Numbered from the whole stretch's first letter, positions 4,223 to 56,711 are shown. The stretch: DNA of 60,214 bases, filler included, from Circinaria calcarea (GCA_051942165.1; 14 parts of 14 records of this genome joined end to end with filler, not necessarily neighbours in it); one strand, 5' to 3'. Numbers and translations: made by a program. Notes: generated by a model from the sequence alone, not told the origin.

Positions 4223-4322
4223 NNNNNNNNNNNNNNNNNNNNNNNNNNNNNNNNNNNNNNNNNNNNTTAATTAATTAANNNNNNNNNNNNNNNNNNNNNN
4301 NNNNNNNNNNNNNNNNNNNNNN
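4223..4322. other. Artificial contig-joining spacer (first of 13)
   Basis: About 100 nt of N with a central TTAATTAATTAA (stops in all six frames). The same spacer starts at ~8545, 12865, 17184, 21502, 25817, 30132, 34443, 38751, 43049, 47344, 51635 and 55926. Confidence 0.98.
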
Positions 4323-7074: not shown

Positions 7075-8704
7075 CTTGGCACCCTTTCAGCTTCTGTCTT
7101 GGGTTTATCGCATCATATCACCTGTTGGGGAGTGTCCGAGCCTCTAGAGACGTCTTGAAGTGAGCCTGTCTGGCATTCCATCACAGCCTCGGTATGGGTT
7201 GGTGCTGACATCTGTCATGTTCGAGGGATTATATGACCATGTTTACCTGCGTTCGGGCTTTCACGCCGGCGAGCGGCACTTCGCAACGGCCGATGCGCAA
7301 ATTAATGCAGCCCTGTGATGCCCGTCATTCGTGCACGGTCCCTTCGGATTTTAGGTGCACTGGAAACCTCCGACGCCTTACGGAATAGCGTGACATGGCC
7401 AATGATGTGAGCAATGAAACTCAAATCAACCATGGTCACTGGCATGACTGCGGTTATTCAGCGATTCTATATATGGACTCTGTACATCCAAATTATCCAA
7501 CGGAAGTAACCAAGCATATCCGAACATGTTCCAGAGGATGGGAAGCCTAGCCTTTGGCTTTAACGAGAATAATACCTGAGTACGTCAACAGCGTATCAGA
7601 AGAAGGCAAGATATATGCAAGGTTCATGACCAACCTTGGGAGTCCATCTCAGCTTTACATAATTTCATGCCCCTTGCAGACTGATATTACGGAACTCGAC
7701 ATCGCCTCAACCATGTGAAGTCAAGAGAGGATGCCCTCCCAACTCTTAATTTTAAATTTGCATCTCGAACCTTATTACGTCCGGCCACGGTACCTGTCTC
7801 TTATATAACTCACTATTCGAGGAATAAACGAACGGGGCGATGCAGGTAGGCTACAGGAGGACAATGCAAAAAGATGACAAGGGCGGGGAAAGGGGGCTAA
7901 AACGTTAAAGAGGAAGGATTATGAAAATAGAGAGCAGCTATAATGGGAACAAGAACATATGCGACAATGAGAACGGTAAGACCCTCTTTATTATCTTAAG
8001 GTCCCCTAAAATTATAGATCTAGCTAGCTTTATAATTTATCTATTACGCATTTCATAGATCGGAAATTCTCAATCCTAGTAAACTATTCCGTCTTGTAAC
8101 ACGTTTTATGCCAGCACGACGTCAACCGGTACCTAACATCAACTAGAATGGGATAGAAAGGAAGGGCATCTACAATGTGAAATCGGGAAATGAAGAGATA
8201 CGAGGCTCCAAGGGTAAGGGAGAGTATGAAAGGGAGAAGGCTTCCGCATCACGACCACATCCAAATAGAGCATCAAAGAGCTGCAAACAAACTTTAAAAG
8301 ACAAAATATCCATCCACCGAAGAAATTCACAAAACGTCTTTGCCTCCCGCTCCCTTCCCCCATTTGCCCCATATCCCAGTCTAATTCACATGTCAGCCTA
8401 ATTGCAAACTCATACTCAACCGCTCGTCAACATACTGAGGTGGAAGCCCTCACTCCTTATTATGAAAAAGGTCCAACGAACTGGAAGAAGCTTTCATCTT
8501 GGCTTTAGGGACTGCCTCCCCCTGCGCTGCTTTGGGAATGAAAANNNNNNNNNNNNNNNNNNNNNNNNNNNNNNNNNNNNNNNNNNNNTTAATTAATTAA
8601 NNNNNNNNNNNNNNNNNNNNNNNNNNNNNNNNNNNNNNNNNNNNCCTTCCCCCCATCCCAAGCCCCTACCGCCCATCTTTGGTCTGGCCGTGTTCCAACC
8701 AGCA

Positions 8705-13245: not shown

Positions 13246-14376
13246 TTAATCCTTCCAAGCCCGATACAGACTCCTCGCCCCAAACATCTCCCCCTTCTTC
13301 ACCCGACACATGCCCCGCCACTCCTCCCTCCCCGCCGCATTCACATACCTCGACGGCTCCACACAAATCCCGCTCCGCTTCCCCCTCCCTTTCACCTTCT
13401 CACCCCAACTCGTCTCGCAGTCCGGCACATCTATAAATTTCCCCGTATAGAACTGAAACGCCGGCTCCGTGCTTTCGACCTCGAGGTGTAGGCCCGTGGC
13501 CGGATGGTAGAGAGTCGCGAGCGTGCGCATGGGTAGGGGACGCGTGTCGAGGGGGATGGAGGTGGGGTCCGGGTTCATGATGAAGCAGTCGTCGATGTCG
13601 GGGGAGTCGGCGGTAAGGGTGAAGGGGGTGTGAGGTTGAGAAGGAATGGAAGGGTAGGTGGGGTGAATAGTTCCGGTAGGGATACCCGAGGGGTCGATTT
13701 CAAGGTGGGCTGTCGTGCCGAGGGTGGCGGTTGTGTCGGCGATGGTGGGGGAGGGGAGGTTGAGGTTGAAGTAGCTGGTTGTTTCGAATACCGTCAGATA
13801 ATGGTTCTGAGAGGAGGAGGATAAAATTGATAATGGCAACGGAAAAGAAGAGTCTTACCTGTGGTTCGTCATCCCCACAACCGTCTCCTCACACTCGTCC
13901 CCTACGAGCTCAGCTTCATACTCCACCTGCAGTACCGTCTTTCCTTCCTCCATTCCGGCCGTATACCACACCCTCGCTTCTACCGTCCCTGGATACCCTT
14001 CCTCCCCATCTTTACTGAGGTACCTAAACTCCACTCCCTCCCTTCCACCCCTATTCAACGGCTTCGGCCCATCCCACTCTCTCTTCCCCCACCCCGTCGG
14101 GCCCCCATGCAACGCATTGCCATTGTTATTCGCCGTCAATTCGTACGTCTTGCCGTTGAGATTGTGGATCTTGGCATCCTTGATGCGATTGGTCGTTCGA
14201 CCGATTGTTTCGCCGAAATACGGGTGCGATACACTGGAGTAGAGACGGGCTTCGGGGAAGTTCTGCACAATGTTGTGGCCGGCGACTTTGAATTCCTGGA
14301 TGAGAGCTCCACGAGGAAGGAAGGTGAAGGCAGATTCGGCGGTGTCTACCACTTTGGCTGCGGATGCAGAAGACAT
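13246..14376 (-). CDS. Aldose 1-epimerase (galactose mutarotase), 348 aa
   Basis: join(13859-14376, 13246-13774), intron 13775-13858. Motifs: YFGETIGRTTNRI, LHGG, DGEEGYPG, TNHSYFNL (spliced), FQFYTG, GICVEPSRY. Confidence 0.93.
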
Positions 14377-31673: not shown

Positions 31674-33479
31674 ATGCAGGATGTCTTTCAGTATCCGTTC
31701 CAGAAAGACAAATTTCGCTATTATCAACCTCAGCCGCCCAGGCAGGCCCCTACAGCACACATGCTAGACCCTAATCTGGAAACCCAGGAAACACCACAGG
31801 CGAACGATGAGACGTTTGCTGAAAATACCATGGATCCAGATGTACAGAAAGAAACTCCAAAATCCGAAGCTGGAGAGCCTTCGCGCGTTCTGCCATCTAC
31901 CGCCATTACCGCGAATAACGTCGATGAGGCTTATGTACAGTTTATCTTTTACTGTAACCCAAACATCCCATTATCAACAGATACATCCGAGTTGAGAAGA
32001 GGGTTTCGGTCCCCGCCGAAGACCGATGGCAAAATCTTTGATACCTTTGTCCTGTTCGGACTGATCAAACGGCTGGAAGCCAAAGAAATCGAGACGTGGT
32101 CACAGCTAGTTATTGAGCTTGGAGTGGAGCCACCAGATCCTGTCAAGAATCAAAGTACTCAAAAGGTGCAGCAATTCGCTGTAAGATTGAAGGTAGAACT
32201 ATCCTTAGCAGCTTTCTTATACTTTGTCTTCATATCAATTTCGCTATCCCTACCTGATTATAAAAACTGATATATGATCTCATAGCGGTGGCTTCATGCT
32301 TTTCATATCGATGCTTTCTTTCAGTATTGCCTCGGGAAGCAGAATACGTATTTCTTGGATATTACGTCGCCCGACCAATCGCTGGCTGATCTTGTCCGAG
32401 ATGGCGTGTCGTCCGAAGAAGATCTCGCAATTAGGGCTCTGCTTCCCGAATGGCGGCCAAAGCGTGGAAGGCGAAAAACAGACCATTCCGAGGCCAATGA
32501 TGACTCCCCTGCTAAACGAATACAGAGGGCTAGGTCTGCAACTGCAGAGGCCTCTGCACCGATTCAAACCGGCTATTCTACTTACCCTCAAAGTGCTTTC
32601 CCTTGGGGACCCGGGTCGGATCATGAGTCTGCATGGGCAGCGGCTCAACGTGCCGTTACGCCGAATTCATCTACCCAAAGCCAAATGTTTGGAACACAAG
32701 GAACGTCCGTAGCATATCCCGGACAACAGGGTTTTTGGGGAGACGGCACCCAAAACACACCTGCAACCCCCTACCCGCAGTCTGCTGTTACACCACGTAT
32801 TAACCACAATAATTTCAGTCAAGGAGACACACCCCAATCCGCCCATCCTCAAACAAGTTCCCCCTCTTTCCGTGGTAGAAAGCGACATGGTCCTGCTGTA
32901 TCAGCCGCTTGGCCTATTACAGGTGGTGGTGCTTCTACCGGAAAACTTCGAGGAAGGCCGCCAAGCGATCGTTCAGTCCAAAATGGTCCTTTCTCAACAT
33001 TCCCTGTCAATCCAACATCTAAAAATGGATTACCGAAGAACAACACAGTTGCACAACCTCCCGCGTCCGAGACTGCTGGCTCTAACCCTGAAGCTGAGAA
33101 AGCCACTCAGGCCATAGCGACGCCTGGTCCCCCTAGGGGTGTCGGTACACCATTAGTGACAAGGCCGAGCAAATTGCAGCTGCAAGTACCTCAACACGAA
33201 GGCGGACCAGTAAGACTCGCCACGCCGCCGCCCAAAGTCCTTCTTAATGGTGAAGACAATGGTCTTGAAGTGAGACCTTCATCATATCACGTTCGGCGTA
33301 CATCTGCAGACTTTTTCAACACCATCGATGAGGAAGCCGATGATGATGGCAATGACGACTATACTGAAGCTGATGGGATCGATTGGAAAAGGAGAGCATT
33401 TCTGCTGAAGCGCAAGTTGGAAGAAAAAGAAGAAGAGCTAAAAGCCTTGCGGCGCCGAGTTTTGGAGGCGGTAATGTGA
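31674..33479 (+). CDS. ARS-binding protein 2 (Abp2)-domain protein; start approximate
   Basis: DEAYVQFIFYCNPNIP...FRSPPKTDGK...TWSQLVIELGVEPP..QSTQKVQQFAVRLK / intron 32193-32285 / RWLHAFHIDAFFQY...RDGV..EEDLAIRALLP.WRPKRGRRK, followed by LRGRPP (AT-hook-like) and a C-terminal coiled coil. Confidence 0.85.
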
Positions 33480-38850: not shown

Positions 38851-38961
38851 CCTCCCCATCCATTACACAGCCACAACAATGTTCCGCTCTACCCTCCTCC
38901 GCGCTTGGGGCGGAGGAGGGTAGAGCGGAACATTGTTGTGGCTGTGTAATGGATGGGGAGG
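38851..38961. repeat. Perfect 52-bp inverted repeat (7-nt loop) at a contig start
   Basis: 38851-38902 is the exact reverse complement of 38910-38961. Confidence 0.95.
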
Positions 38962-41442: not shown

Positions 41443-43048
41443 ATGCGCGCCTCCCTCTCCTTTTCAGTGCTATTGGGCGTGTCTGTTGTGGCAGCTCTGC
41501 AAAATCCACATAGGAAAGCGGCAAACTACGCTCCAAAGAAGAAGCAACCTCTTGTCAAAAGGGAAGCTCCCGCCATAAAGCAAACCTTGAGCTATCTTAC
41601 CGACAGCACAGCTCGTAAATAAATTCCCATTTTCTCCGTGCAGACGGTTACTAACACGAACTAGCATTTGCTGTGAATGGAACCGCCTTGCCAGAAGTCA
41701 ATTTCGATATTGGCGAATCCTATGCAGGGACTCTGTCCATTGATTCGAATTCCGACAACTATAATCGACTTTGGTTCTGGTTTTTCCCATCCGAGAATCC
41801 AGAGGCATCCGACGAGATTACAATCTGGCTCAACGGCGGTCCAGGCTGCTCGTCCCTCGATGGTCTATTTCAAGAGAACGGCAAATTTCTATGGCAGTCT
41901 GGCACCTATGCTCCAGTACTCAATCCATATTCCTGGACTAATCTTACCAACATGGTATGTTTTAGTCCTTTCGAATTGATGTTGCCCGACTAACTGGTCT
42001 AGATCTATATCGATCAGCCAGTATCAACTGGGTTTTCGCCTGGAAATGTCACTATCAACGATGAGCAAGATGTGGCAAAATATTTCCTCGGATTCTGGAA
42101 AAATTTCATGAGTACATTTGCTCTAAACGGTAGAAAAGTTTACATCACAGGCGAGAGCTATGCTGGCCAATACGTGAGACATCTCCTCCAAAGGAACCCT
42201 CACTGGTTAACGTGTTCAATAGATCCCCTATATAGCCAGTGCCATGCTTGACGCAAATGACACTGAGTACTATAACGTCCAAGGGATACAGATCATTGAT
42301 CCTAGCATAAATGAGGACGAAGTATTACTAGAGGGTATTTGTTCTCGGCTTCTACCGCAATTTCATTGTCCATTCTTCTAACTTGCTGGCAGCTCCGTCT
42401 ATCATGGCCGTGAATCAGTACAATAACATCCTTAGCATCAATGCGTCATACTTGGCTTTCCTCAATGAAAAGGCTGATTCGTGCGGCTTTACTTCATTCA
42501 TGGAGAATGCACTTGTATTTCCTCCCGTGGGACCTCTTCCTTCAGCGCCAGCAGCGTTTGGGAACGGCTGTGACGTCTTTGATGACTTTACCGTTGCTGC
42601 TGCCTACGTTAATCCATGCTACAATGTCTACCATATCACGGATTTCTGCCCATTCCTGTGGAGCGAGCTGGGTTTGTTATCCGATTATATTGGAGGACGT
42701 GGTCTGATTCATGATAGGATTTCCTTCTCTAGCCGGAGGGCCGAATAACTACTTTAACCGGAGCGACGTCCAATCTGTAATTCACGCGGGGCCAACTGAT
42801 TATTCGATCTGTGGAGGTGGTCCTAATCTCTTTCCTACGGGAGACAAGTCTATACCGAGTGGACTCGGTCCGCTGCCGAGCGTTATTGATAGGACTAACA
42901 ACGTCATCATCGCCCACGGTCTATTAGATTTCCTTCTCTTTGCCAATGGGTCTCTCGTCACCATCCAAAACATGACTTGGAACGGCATGCAGGGGTTCCA
43001 GACAGCCCCGTCGGACCCATTCTTTGTCCCCTACCACCCACAGCTCGG
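41443..43048 (+). CDS. Secreted serine carboxypeptidase (peptidase S10, CpdS-like); 3'-truncated
   Basis: Signal [44 protein letters not shown] and the catalytic GESYAG; several short introns. Confidence 0.93.
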
Positions 43049-44308
43049 NNNNNNNNNNNNNNNNNNNNNNNNNNNNNNNNNNNNNNNNNNNNTTAATTAA
43101 TTAANNNNNNNNNNNNNNNNNNNNNNNNNNNNNNNNNNNNNNNNNNNNGGGTAGGGCAACACCTACCCCACCCCACCCCGGGGTAAGTGGGGTGGGGTAT
43201 TGAGAACACTGATTGAGATGACCGTGAATCTCGGCGACCGGAATGGCACCCTTGACTTCTATTGGCGGTTTGGGATTGGCGAGAAGATCTCTTAGCCGAG
43301 GCAGTTCCCCACGGTCCTTTCACAGCCCTTCCTTCCAGCTTCCGAGAAACAATCAGGACTTGACCTCCTCGGCAGGAAGGCGTTCCAAAGTACTTTTGAT
43401 CTCGTCTCAATCTGTGTGCAGCAGATTAATCTGTTGCTCGTCGTCTTCCCGTCCCTCGAGGATATGCTGCAGATGGACGCTGGAAGTGGTTAAGTCAATT
43501 ATTCGAAGTTATAATACCAGCATTTAAATATGCCGTTGATCGGCTCTTCGCCTGGCTCAAATTGGTCGATAGCGTGTCGGATATCGAATCCCCGTGTTAT
43601 TTTCTCGATTAAGGGAGTTCGTGGTCATGGTATTCTCCGATAGCGCCTCCCATATGCCGTGGCAAGTCCCACGGTTTCTTTCTAGCATTTTTGACGAGTG
43701 CCTCCAGCATCCTGCCTTGCCCTCTGGCTCGTAAAACGTAATATTAAGGCGGGAGGGAGCATATTTTCCTGATATTTCGCAGCCCATACTTTGCACGAAT
43801 CTAGGTACTATCACTGTTTAGGATAGCTAGGTACCTATTCTTCTTCCGTCTGGTACTTTGGTTCAGAGGTTCGTAAGCTTACTCAAAGCTGGTGAACGAT
43901 AAGTATTTTTCGGGAGCGGAAGGGTTTTGGTTCTAGTAGGAAGGCATGGGGCTGGGGGGCCGTTCTTTGTCAACAATGAGCTTTATAAAATTATAATATA
44001 ATAATCGTAGTGGCTCCCTTGTGAGTATGGTGTCTTTCGATGATCCAACCAATCAAGTTCAATGGGTCGAGTAAAGAGGTCTTCGAGATTGAAAACGCCC
44101 TTTGTATCTGATCGGCGACTGGAGTATTGTGAGTTAGATGAGGATATAAACTTGGTAGCTTTGGGGGCAATAGAAGCCTTTGGAATAATTCCATCCAGAA
44201 GGTGATTATCAGGGCATTTTATAACACCCTACAAAGTGATTGGTAAATTCACCTGGAAACAGTTCTGAGTTCATACCGCAAAAGTCCTGGGCGTCAGAGA
44301 GGACTACC

Positions 44309-45950
44309 TCACTCACACCAAAGAAAACGAGGTGTGTGCACCCTATCGTCAGATTGGCAGCCTCTAATATACCGTCGCGTCCCTTCTCTATAGATGTATC
44401 GGTCTATGTTCATAACGGCGAAACATGCTCGAGATCGTATAACGTAAGGCATGGTGGCCAGTGGCACTTGTGGGAAACGTGACATCCTATCAAGGTATCT
44501 AAAATGGATTTGTCGAGCTCCGGCCCAGGTGATCTAGCCAGGAAATTCAGCCACCAAGACCAACACCGCTAGAGGCAATGGACTGGGGCAACTGGGACAA
44601 GATGTTAACACCTAATACTTGAACCTTAGCCGCTGCTTGTTGTTAGTCCACAAATCAGTAACGCGATAAACACCGCCGTCCTTATTCGATTGAGCAAACA
44701 AGCTCCTCGATTTGAAGTATTGCCTTGATATGATGGGATAGTAACAATGCTTGTAGAATTCAGTAAGGACCATTCCGCAACGTTTCGTGGTTTTTTCCTG
44801 GGCGCTTTCGTACAATGCAGTCACTATCTCCTTGGTTTCTAGATTCAAACTGAATTTGCTGCCACCTTGCTCCAGAGCGTTATCAAGTATGTTGCGAGCA
44901 TGTTCAACATAGCACTGGTGTAGATGCGCAATAATAATATCCTCGGTTGGAAAAGTTTGTTTGCACCCGTTGTACAGACAACCAAACCAAGTTGGTTCAT
45001 GTATCGTCTCAACGTGTTTATCCATCTCATCAGAGGTCGGAGATCCCAGGTAGCAGCCTGGCCATATGCACAAAAATTGCCACTTCCGCAGATGTCTCTT
45101 CTGTTGGGACTACAATGGATTTTCCAGGCGAGGATTTAGACGGGGATCCCAAGCGTACCGCCTGGAACTCGGACTTCCCTTATTTGGTGAAAAGAAAGTG
45201 AACCTTCTGTCTCCGATGTTCTCATATCGTTCATTGATATATTTTACTAACTTATACTGCTCCACTCACGTCACCAGGGTTTTCAGACCGCGAGGCGTCG
45301 ACAGGTGACTCAATTCAATATTTATTCTGGTCCATTCTCCCTAAACTCTCTCCCTCCTTATCTGCACTAGTTGCTTCAGGGTCCGTGTGTGCCTGTTAAA
45401 AGCCAACTTATATTTTTAACGCAAATGAGTAAGGAGCGCCAGCTCAGCCGTCCGGATCTCGTAGTGGGAAATCTGGTCCCCCACGCTAATGTCGGCACTG
45501 TGGAGCATTCAAAAGGGGTTTCTTTAAACGAGGCGGTTCATCTTTGCCTGATGGATAGCTAGCGATTTCGATTTATAAATCCAATACGTCATCTGGCTCT
45601 TACTATAAACTGTTTGCAATTTCTTTACCATGTACCGTCATCTATATGGTTCGGGGTTTCTGGTTGGTCAACATTTCGTATGCACGGGCAAAAATGCGCT
45701 TTTGAATTTCTACCTGCTTCTCTTTAAGCTTACTATCAAAAAGCTCTTACAGACGTTTTTCGACGGCTTCTTATCTATTCCTTATCCCCATCATCACCGA
45801 CTTTCAAGACGTCGAAGCAGTCGATGAACGTAGGTGTATTTGCCGGTTTTAGCGATATCGTAGCGTTCTTTATAGGCGTATCGTTTTCAAAGATTGCTGG
45901 GAATGGCCTAATTCTGACGACGTACTAGATGGTGGTATGCTCAGTGATAA
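44309..45950 (-). pseudogene. Decayed gene with two C2H2-like fingers and a His-Cys box (His-Me finger) endonuclease-like motif; RIP-like damage
   Basis: CIWPGC..HVETIH and CLYNGC..HLHQC in ORF 44612-45073. Reading through TAG 44612 gives HVSHKCHWPPCLTLYDLEHVS, and after a frameshift NIDR...GC...HTPR. Upstream frame 45480-45770 carries many TAA/TAG stops. Confidence 0.6.
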
Positions 45951-47929
45951 AGTGTTGAAAGACAATTATACGTCATCCAAAAAGAGGAGAGGTCATTAAG
46001 ACAAGCTAGGCTATTCGCCTATCCTGCCAAAATTTCCATCATATATACTTCAGACCTTGTAGAGATGCCTGTTAGATAGGGTCCGCTGAGAGGTGGTAGG
46101 ACATCGAAGAAGCCTGGTTCCTTGAGTGGATAATAAGCCTTTGGATGTGATTTGCCTGCGTCCGGACTTCAGAATCTGACTGCTAATGCCGTCTGTACTA
46201 GGAGATAGCCGGATAGTGCAATCCTTCTCTTTGTAGTGGAACTGGATTGATGTAAGGAATACCGAAGCTAATGGAATTTTGTCATTAAATACCATATATA
46301 ATTCTCCTTATAATAAGGCGGGAGTCGTTAAAAAGGAATAGGAATTTTTGTAACGAAGTGTTTAATTAAATATGTATTTAAGGAACCTAAGAATATAAAC
46401 AGAAACTCGCGTCTGCTTACAACGCCGGACGTTACGGACAAGAATATATTATTATAGGCAAGGACCTACCTGAGCTGATGAGAGCTTCTTATTCGACTGT
46501 TGCAAGTTCATACTAGAGCAGTACCTGAAATAGAGAGACAGAAACCGGGCCACTAATACATAATCCACCACTCCGATCTCCCCCATTCCCCCTCTATTTA
46601 AACCTCCCACTAAATATACATCTCCCTTCTGGAAAAGGCTCTATGGTTGCATGTATGGACAAATACGGCGCGAAGACTACCAATAGAAAAGAAGCGAAAG
46701 GTTTGGGGGCTAAGGAATGGGAGATCGGTACAGACGGAAGTGAAGGTTAGAAAAGGGAGGGTGAGATAAGCTGTTGGAAGGCGGAGTTTAGGAAGCATAA
46801 GATGTTATATGTAAAGAATGTATTGCATAGATTGCTCCTCACTCCCAAACCCAGTAATTTCCGTCCTTTCGCTCTTGAATCGGACTCCTTGCCGAGAGTG
46901 TTTTTTGCCCGAGGGGAGGATGACAATGGCCAGGGTAAGGAGACTGGTGAAAGGCTTGGGCTGGAGGTAAGAGTTTGGATAGGGAAAGTGGAAGTAGGTG
47001 GGTCAGGAGTTTGCACTCCAAACCGAGATTACCGTGGTGTTTTTGTAGCCGAAACCTCGTCAGGCCGCGTGATACAGCTGCACTCGAAGTATACAGGGCA
47101 AGCAGTAAACCTTGCACTTCCGCATGTATCATACGTAATCAAACAATCGAAATCTCTTCTCTCACATGTATCCCGGGGTCCGCGGGGCTATCGTAAATCT
47201 CGCTTGAACCTCTCTCAATTCTCGACGTACCCCCGTTCTGACTCAGATCTCGGATTTCTCTGTAGCCTTTGAACGGGTACTCGACCGTGTGCGATACCGT
47301 ACTTTGGGCTGGATTCGAAGAAGGTATGCTGCTGACTCCGTACNNNNNNNNNNNNNNNNNNNNNNNNNNNNNNNNNNNNNNNNNNNNTTAATTAATTAAN
47401 NNNNNNNNNNNNNNNNNNNNNNNNNNNNNNNNNNNNNNNNNNNTCGCGGGGGTGTTTTGGTCATTGTTGCAATTTGGGGGGTGGGGGGTTCTGGGAAGTA
47501 GGGATTCTATAGCTGAGGGGAATGAAGGATGCGGAAAGGGGGCTTGGGAAAGGTCGGGGAGGATAATGACGGTGGTAGGGGATATCGCTCTCGCCGTTAC
47601 CCGGGCCCCCGTGCTCAAACTTGGCTTTTGACCAATTTCATAGAAACTTGTGGTTTATTCCTAGGAGAACGGTGGAAAGGAGATAAATAACCGTAGAATA
47701 GGGAAGCCTGCGGAAGGGGTGGACGGACCGGGGAATTGTGGTTCTCGAACGAGGCAAAGGGGGGTGGATATCTCGTAGTCTACGGGTTTTTTTGGGGAAG
47801 GGGGGGGGATCACAGACTCCGTTGGAGTTACCTTAACACGCCTAGATACTCTCTAAAGCCGACTGTACACCGGAAAGCTTGATCGAGTCAGGTTAGTTGA
47901 AGGACTCAAGTCCAACCTCTTAGGCGCAT

Positions 47930-55925: not shown

Positions 55926-56711
55926 NNNNNNNNNNNNNNNNNNNNNNNNNNNNNNNNNNNNNNNNNNNNTTAATTAATTAANNNNNNNNNNNNNNNNNNN
56001 NNNNNNNNNNNNNNNNNNNNNNNNNCCCCCTATCTATCTACCCGAGTCCCCCTTAATCCCCTGATTCCGGGATATCGATTGATTCTGAGTTTCTGAATTT
56101 TTGAATTCTTGGGACCAGGGAGGTAGCGCACGAAGCATGAGCATAAAGGACGAGCATCAAAGACGGTAAGGTGGGGTGGGGGGAGTTGGTTTTTGGTCTT
56201 AGTCTAAGATGGATATTTAAAAGAGGGCGACTCGTAATATTACATTACAATACATACATCACTCTATTCCTAGCATGAATAAGGAAACATTGCCCGGATT
56301 GGACCGGATCGGATAGGTGGTCATTTGAAATGGTTAATGGGTTTCTGTTTTTGGTTTGTGGGTTTGAAATTTTTTTAAAAAGACAAATGACTATCTATAC
56401 CCTACCGCTAAATCCCCTTCCATCTCATCGCTTCCCATCCTCCCTTCATCGAGAACAAAAGAAAACAGATCGCAGATGTGCAGTGTGATGAATAGGGGAG
56501 TCAGGAGGGAGAATAATGAATATCTACTCCAGTAGTCTTCGAGTTTCCAGCTGGTCATCTCGATCATCCGATTTCATCCCCTGCATGGCTCTCAGCTTCT
56601 GATTAAGTTGGAGTCGCGATTTGCAGCGTTTAACAAAAGAAATATGCAGACGTGCAGTGGTGAACGCTCTCGCAGTGTTGAGTGATTCCTGCAATTCTTG
56701 ACAAAGAAAAG

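Follow-up and report, generated by a model that had tools for sequence, protein, structure and literature searches.

Engineered zinc-finger nucleases are man-made proteins in which C2H2 fingers are coupled to a FokI domain, a nuclease of the PD-(D/E)xK type. His-Cys-box enzymes are described, in the sections of the literature drawn on here, as small, homodimeric proteins that are encoded in group I introns of nuclear rDNA in protists and fungi and that read DNA with β-sheets (PMC3943268, PMC3384342). The corresponding Pfam family, PF05551 (zf-His_Me_endon), appears with I-PpoI, I-CpiI and I-PchI in the consulted part of a superfamily survey, which counts 62 sequences in this group and marks it Fungi (PMC5714182), and a paper on Naegleria places PF05551 open reading frames (ORFs) on rDNA plasmids. 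For I-PpoI, the residues S97, H98, H110, E114 and N119 are given as conserved or catalytic in the portion of Kojima and Bao 2022 used here (PMC9587614). The same portion describes the KolobokP DNA transposons of animals, in which a small I-PpoI-like nuclease stands alone beside a DDD/E transposase and is thought to serve the selfish element. No description of a fusion between C2H2 fingers and a His-Cys-box domain was found in the papers searched, although such a fusion may already be visible in domain-architecture databases or in subscription journals.

Here we describe a locus at which both kinds of domain occur together. Within the window, that is, the whole stretch of 60,214 bases that was analyzed, the segment 44309-45112 on the minus strand probably represents a single decayed copy of a family gene that encodes zinc fingers, a linker and a His-Cys-box nuclease. 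Homology to this family, the domain order, the spacing of the motifs and the frame breaks are established at the level of sequence comparison.

The locus, its contig and its reading frames

The window consists of 14 contigs sorted by length (4222 down to 4189 nt) and separated by 13 linkers of 100 nt, N runs flanking TTAATTAATTAA, at 4223-4322, 8545-8644 and so on to 55926-56025. Since the contigs are joined by linkers, features facing each other across a linker are not adjacent in the genome, and the contig at 43149-47343 (4195 nt), on which the zinc-finger and nuclease locus lies, is its only real context. Pfam domains on the other contigs (Fungal_trans, Abp2, a LYC1 GNAT-like domain, oxysterol-binding protein, DEAH helicase and serine carboxypeptidase) point to an ascomycete-like fungus as the putative source. 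On the contig of the locus, seven long ORFs, four of them within 45111-47343, gave no Pfam match, and neither tandem repeats nor terminal inverted or long direct repeats were found. An Rfam search at E≤1, run over these 4195 nt only, detected no rRNA or group I intron, in agreement with the first-pass annotation, which had seen no rDNA or group I intron context. With the five related proteins described below as tblastn queries, this was the only locus in the whole window to match the family.

Fingers and linker share one frame, here called A (44615-45109), in a finger ORF of 165 aa at 44612-45109 (-). The two C2H2-like units previously noted in this ORF are indeed present on the minus strand, at 45070-44999 and 44980-44912. 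Finger 1 aligns with the invariant C/W/P/G/C/H/H columns of the family and fits the C-x2-4-C-x12-H-x3-5-H pattern of C2H2 fingers, while finger 2 reads C-x4-C-x12-H and then either H-x-H or H-x3-C, where the family has H-x4-H. Pfam matches of the finger ORF stayed under their cut-offs (zf-C2H2_8, 15.0 bits; FOXP-CC, 16.4 bits). An ORF start at 45073, as proposed earlier, was not borne out: the codon there is TTG, no in-frame ATG lies between the TAG at 45110-45112 and finger 1, and the first in-frame ATG, the codon of MDKH, is inside finger 1. A weak tblastn match to P0142, one of the relatives, crosses this TAG and reaches 45169. At the other end of frame A, the conserved final Tyr of the linker directly precedes the TAG of break 1 (Table 1).

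Table 1 Features of the zinc-finger and nuclease locus, in the order of reading on the minus strand.
Feature	Position	Strand	Description
Upstream TAG	45110..45112	-	In frame A, directly upstream of the finger ORF
Zinc finger 1	44999..45070	-	CIWPGC-x12-HVETIH, C-x4-C-x12-H-x4-H; frame A
Zinc finger 2	44912..44980	-	CLYNGC-x12, then H-L-H-Q-C
Linker	44615..44911	-	Frame A; Y..Y....R.YF..R....Q ... R-x4-Y, conserved
Break 1	44612..44614	-	TAG in frame A
Variable spacer	about 44568..44612	-	Frame C, GVNILSQLPQSIASS; between linker and nuclease
Break 2	44566..44567	-	Two leftover bases between frames C and B, one base missing
Nuclease, first half	44416..44565	-	Frame B; WSWW..ELDK..CHVSHKCHWPPC..DLEHVSP
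Break 3	44414..44415	-	Two leftover bases between frames B and A, one base missing
Nuclease, second half	44312..44413	-	Frame A; M-N-I-D-R-Y-I-Y...GC......H......C-E
Terminal TGA	44309..44311	-	Closes the last piece

From the fingers to the terminal TGA, the reading starts in frame A, moves to B, possibly by way of C, and returns to A. Break 1 is either a nonsense change or a one-base loss that shifts the reading into frame C. Breaks 1 and 2 can accordingly be read in two ways, each of which takes two events: two single-base losses with passage through the frame C stretch GVNILSQLPQSIASS, or one nonsense change together with the insertion of a single base. A frame-B TAG is located at 44569-44571, just upstream of break 2, and the length of the spacer fits the 11-18 residues seen in relatives. 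An intron across break 1 was considered and rejected; in a check by hand of all GT donors downstream of the conserved Tyr and all AG acceptors upstream of WSWW, none could be paired in the correct phase to reach WSWW without including the TAG.

In the first half of the nuclease, SHKCH lies at 44461-44475 (-), with the codon of the catalytic His at 44470-44472 and an Asp 12 residues further on (+12; 44434-44436). Reading break 3 as one X gives back the exact spacing of the family, which leaves no space for an intron here. The second half is MNIDRYIYREGTRRYIRGCQSDDRVHTPRFLWCE plus the TGA at 44413-44309 (-), with an Asn at +21 (44408-44410) and a Tyr (TAT, 44390-44392) where the family has Cys. 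Several statements of the first-pass annotation on this region need revision. SHKCH had been placed in the frame of the finger ORF beyond its TAG; the frame A read-through gives the unrelated peptide VLTSCPSCPSPLPL and runs on to a second stop, and SHKCH is in another frame. The final stretch, said to follow after a single one-base shift, is there as MNIDRYIYREGTRRYIRGCQSDDRVHTPRFLWCE with its TGA, but at least two breaks are needed to reach it, and MNIDRY lies in the finger frame. As for two supposedly lost cysteines, the change to Tyr is confirmed (44392-44390 is TAT, and all three relatives that reach this column have Cys), whereas the change to Phe is not supported, a Cys three residues on (LWCE) aligning equally well with the last Cys of the relatives.

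At the very end of the locus, a donor-like GTGAGT hexamer (44311-44316, minus strand) shares bases with both the TGA and the codon of the last Cys. A 64-nt intron from this hexamer to an AG near 44253 would keep a Cys codon and add 14 residues, in which reading by hand found no likeness to the relatives; a further exon beyond the TGA at 44309-44311 may exist.

Additional observations were made elsewhere in the window. Near-threshold RIP indices were seen in the flank at 45111-47343 (TpA/ApT 0.98, (CpA+TpG)/(ApC+GpT) 0.99), while most other contigs differ; the contig at 47444-51634 is also near the RIP thresholds (0.97 and 1.04, respectively), and the one long ORF tested on it had no Pfam match. 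One contig begins with an inverted repeat (38851-38961), perfect over 52 nt and with a loop of 7 nt, which may be a hairpin end or an artefact of assembly. A serine carboxypeptidase gene (Peptidase_S10; 41655-43048, plus strand) is cut off by the end of its contig. Finally, an aldose 1-epimerase and an Abp2 gene keep their frame across stops (13855-13857 and 32268-32285), with contiguous Pfam profile positions on either side; reassignment of a stop codon was rejected here, as the junctions contain ~80-90 nt of unmatched sequence, for which in-phase introns are the better explanation.

Relatives and fit of the window copy

A phmmer search with the 165-aa ORF against 1.84 billion representatives returned 183 proteins at E≤0.001, nearly all of which cover only query residues ~3-75, that is, generic fingers. 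SHxCH occurs in three of the 150 matches listed, P0010 (262 aa), P0121 (494 aa) and P0134 (1141 aa). In P0142 (255 aa), the likeness is confined to fingers and linker, and P0151 (558 aa) was added by profile search; searching with the profile of the family alignment gave only P0121, P0151 and P0142. All five proteins share fingers and linker with the window copy, and in P0121, P0134, P0151 and P0010 the nuclease part follows behind them in a single reading frame. Separate genes for the fingers and the SHxCH segment, an outcome that the first-pass annotation had named as speaking against its proposal, are thus not what the relatives show: four of the five carry both, in the same order.

The alignments reveal a common architecture. 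In the N-terminal part, an optional extra finger is followed by the C-x-WPGC finger and a second finger. The linker is ~110 residues long in the relatives and has invariant Y, A, R, G and Q residues and an R-x4-Y motif. Within the nuclease part the order is W-W, LDKF, SHxCH-x3-C, [H/D]-L, N-x-[DN]-R-x2-C-K-N and a Cys/His tail. Furthermore, P0134 and the cut-off start of P0151 include an Ulp1-type protease part (Peptidase_C48, 22.1 bits at a cut-off of 20.7), both proteins possess Cys-rich repeats at the C-terminus (GPCA...GW...LC..CY), and P0134 has a long, coiled-coil-like N-terminus. When searched against the PDB, the family profile matched GLI (five-finger; E 1.8e-13) and WT1 (2.4e-9), and also YY1 and ZIC3. 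The C-x-W-P-G-C start is common to the family and to GLI, ZIC, YY1 and WT1, which, unlike the family, are transcription factors without a nuclease.

The four relatives that were looked up are singleton clusters, each found on one or two contigs, and no transposase match was seen in the family proteins. A word-based protein search covering longer proteins gave no match for the finger ORF or for the 52-aa piece of frame B. None of 117 pattern stretches from a metagenome scan with the family alignment was confirmed, nor was any of 77 from a scan of viral contigs, and of nine loci with the degenerate DNA pattern [IV]SHKCHW..C, none matched the family by tblastn at E≤1e-3. The family is small, thinly spread and eukaryotic, and by all signs fungal.

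The window copy was compared with this family piece by piece and as a whole. Tblastn gave two linked matches, one in frame -1 (45076-44636) and the other in frame -2 (44568-44416), with E values of 1.2e-19 for P0121, 3.7e-20 for P0134 and 3.1e-22 for P0010. The 52-aa piece in frame B matches P0121 with 48% identity across 46 residues (E 6e-14). Evidence from the last piece alone (44312-44413) is slighter: BLASTP was not significant, the piece scored 6.3 bits against the family HMM, and hhalign placed it at the next collinear family columns with E 0.0062 and a probability of 6%, as compared with E 0.42 and an unrelated place for the rival frame. A read-through of the window copy, built by a script with X at the three breaks, was scored against the family HMM and fitted as one domain with 137.9 bits over family-profile positions 40-288. 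Its nuclease tail reached 75.4 bits, the maximum in 200 shuffles being 2.9 bits, and its identity to the four relatives was 25-31% over 225-273 columns. The finger and nuclease motifs of the window are real and exceed chance by far.

Assignment of the nuclease domain

Whether the family domain is of the His-Cys-box type was assessed by profile, by cluster and by residue register. At the PF05551 gathering cut-off of 27 bits, P0121 passed with 29.1 bits over profile positions 11-123 of 131, P0151 (22.2 bits) and P0010 (17.0 bits) fell under it, and P0134 gave nothing at E≤0.01. Among the unjoined pieces of the window itself, no nuclease-type or other Pfam family passed, and the nuclease pieces gave nothing at E≤10. 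The PF05551 profile match that had been anticipated is thus found in P0121 but not in the window pieces, for which the link runs through this relative. In the ESM Atlas, the third-ranked cluster for the P0151 nuclease part, with a score of 0.92 and 181 shared features, has PF05551 in 86% of its members, mostly from Ascomycota, and is a lead only; ranks 1 and 2 were bacterial and viral clusters, and P0121 residues 220-494 had no usable match. Four sequence searches of the PDB had zinc-finger proteins only and no I-PpoI chain among their matches, and an AlphaFold2 model from the 4-row alignment had a mean pLDDT of 36.8.

The strongest argument for His-Cys-box membership is the residue register with I-PpoI. 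All four nuclease-bearing relatives share an invariant Ser-His pair and, after it, an invariant Cys-His and Cys, and SHKCH is kept in the window. Counted from the catalytic His, the Cys at +2 and +7 are kept in the family and in the window; these two would correspond to zinc ligands of I-PpoI. At +12 (H110 in I-PpoI), His is found in P0134, P0151 and P0010, and Asp in P0121 and the window. The Asn at +21 (N119) is present in all three relatives that reach this column and, with break 3 read as one X, in the window too. Glu at +14 is shared by the window, P0121, P0151 and P0010, with Gln in P0134, and all relatives and the window have Val at +16, so that the Glu of I-PpoI (E114) is not kept; I-DirI carries E114V according to the portion of the transposon study used here (PMC9587614). 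The Cys at +27 occurs in three of three relatives and is the Tyr of the window, and in the tail beyond it Cys...His...Cys is present at a spacing that differs from the two zinc sites, of eight His/Cys, of the His-Cys box.

At the sequence level, the family and the I-PpoI-type enzymes agree in the Ser-His pair, in Cys residues at +2 and +7 and a ligand position at +12 counted from the His, in an Asn that falls at +21 in both, and in a tail rich in Cys and His. They differ in that the family domain follows C2H2 fingers, the proteins being 262-1141 aa long, and lacks E114, and in that the contig of the locus contains no rRNA or intron. The proposal that a His-Me finger domain stands behind C2H2 fingers is supported: the domain appears to be of the PF05551 type, and the relatives carry both parts in one protein and in that order.

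Such a domain need not cut DNA. It could be catalytically inert and serve as a second DNA- or zinc-binding module like Smad MH1, which would make the family a group of transcription factors; the consulted part of the superfamily survey includes the inactive Smad MH1 domain among His-Me fingers (PMC5714182), fingers of the GLI/YY1 type are typical of transcription factors, and both the exchange of His for Asp at +12 in P0121 and the window and the loss of E114 would be in keeping with inactivity. However, the Ser-His pair with the following Cys-His and Cys is invariant in 4/4 nuclease-bearing relatives, and the +21 Asn persists in every relative that reaches it and in the window, and we regard an inert domain as unlikely.

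Probable decay of the window copy and proposed nature of the family

Three frame breaks fall inside 201 nt of the window copy, and further defects are the in-frame TAG upstream, the missing start codon before finger 1, one lost Cys and the irregular finger 2. Broken in at least three places and devoid of a start, the copy is most likely a relic and not a hidden working domain. The claim of a hidden nuclease domain stands as far as the presence of the domain is concerned, and fails on its intactness. Very probably, then, the window copy is a pseudogene.

The gene could instead be intact, with a working finger and His-Cys-box nuclease and three single-base undercalls introduced by a poor draft assembly. 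The path A->C->B->A consists of three like shifts with one base missing in each, it runs without a stop from finger 1 to the TGA, and every break adjoins a short single-base run. Single missing bases are moreover the pattern expected from base-calling errors in a low-coverage contig, and the assembly is highly fragmented, with contigs of ~4.2 kb joined by linkers. Against this, 14.4 kb of long ORFs are open in the other contigs of the window. From these ORFs (14,376 nt), a uniform indel error rate was bounded at less than about 2e-4 per base, which gives P ~1e-5 for three errors in 201 nt if coverage is even. Indels also leave the TAG at 45110-45112 and the missing start codon unexplained, and the change of a conserved Cys to Tyr and the irregular finger 2 add to the damage. 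An intact gene is, in our view, quite improbable. That finger ORF and SHKCH segment are unrelated neighbours, with a nuclease motif arisen by chance, can be practically dismissed: the window pieces have no Pfam match and the two parts lie in different frames, but four relatives hold both in one ORF with a collinear linker, the read-through fits as a single domain (137.9 bits, with shuffles at ≤2.9 bits) and tblastn E values range from 1e-19 to 3e-22.

Repeat-induced decay was examined separately. RIP as the cause was rejected, as the locus is not RIP-like (TpA/ApT 0.80; (CpA+TpG)/(ApC+GpT) 1.19) and only the upstream flank is borderline.

Under the favoured reading of the locus as a decayed family member, intact members would comprise two to three C2H2 fingers of the GLI/YY1 type, a linker of ~110 residues and a His-Me finger domain of the I-PpoI kind (PF05551). 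The fingers would bind a specific DNA sequence, and the nuclease domain would then cut, the His of the Ser-His pair activating a water molecule, the Asn 21 residues on holding a Mg ion, and structural zinc being held by the Cys/His clusters. An intact member would be a natural zinc-finger nuclease, probably selfish, free-standing and of the homing type, or else one that a mobile element uses as its nuclease; the window copy itself would be unable to make such a protein.

A plausible history, which we would stop short of calling probable, is that P0121, P0134 and P0151 are natural zinc-finger nucleases in which an I-PpoI-type domain left its rDNA intron and acquired C2H2 fingers as a targeting module, spreading or persisting as selfish genes of the homing or transposon type, with the window copy now dead. 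Indirect hints of mobility may be seen in how sparsely the family is spread, in the truncation or decay of P0010, P0142 and the window copy, and in the added Ulp1 part. The nuclease of KolobokP offers a parallel, in that both are I-PpoI-like, eukaryotic and nuclear, and found outside an rDNA intron; the present family is unlike KolobokP in its fused fingers, in giving no transposase match and in the Ulp1-type protease part of P0134 and P0151. With engineered zinc-finger nucleases the family would share a common logic, in which modular C2H2 fingers choose the target and a linker connects them to a nuclease domain of low specificity. It differs from them in being natural, in its putative beta-beta-alpha-metal domain and in having only two to three fingers.

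The window copy, as a relic, matters only as a pointer to this family. If the reading given here is true, the family, with an Ulp1-type protease in some members, would be the equivalent in nature of zinc-finger nucleases made by engineering, and would provide the second case, after KolobokP, of a His-Cys-box nuclease that works outside an intron. It could then yield compact modular nucleases and represent a new type of selfish gene in fungi.
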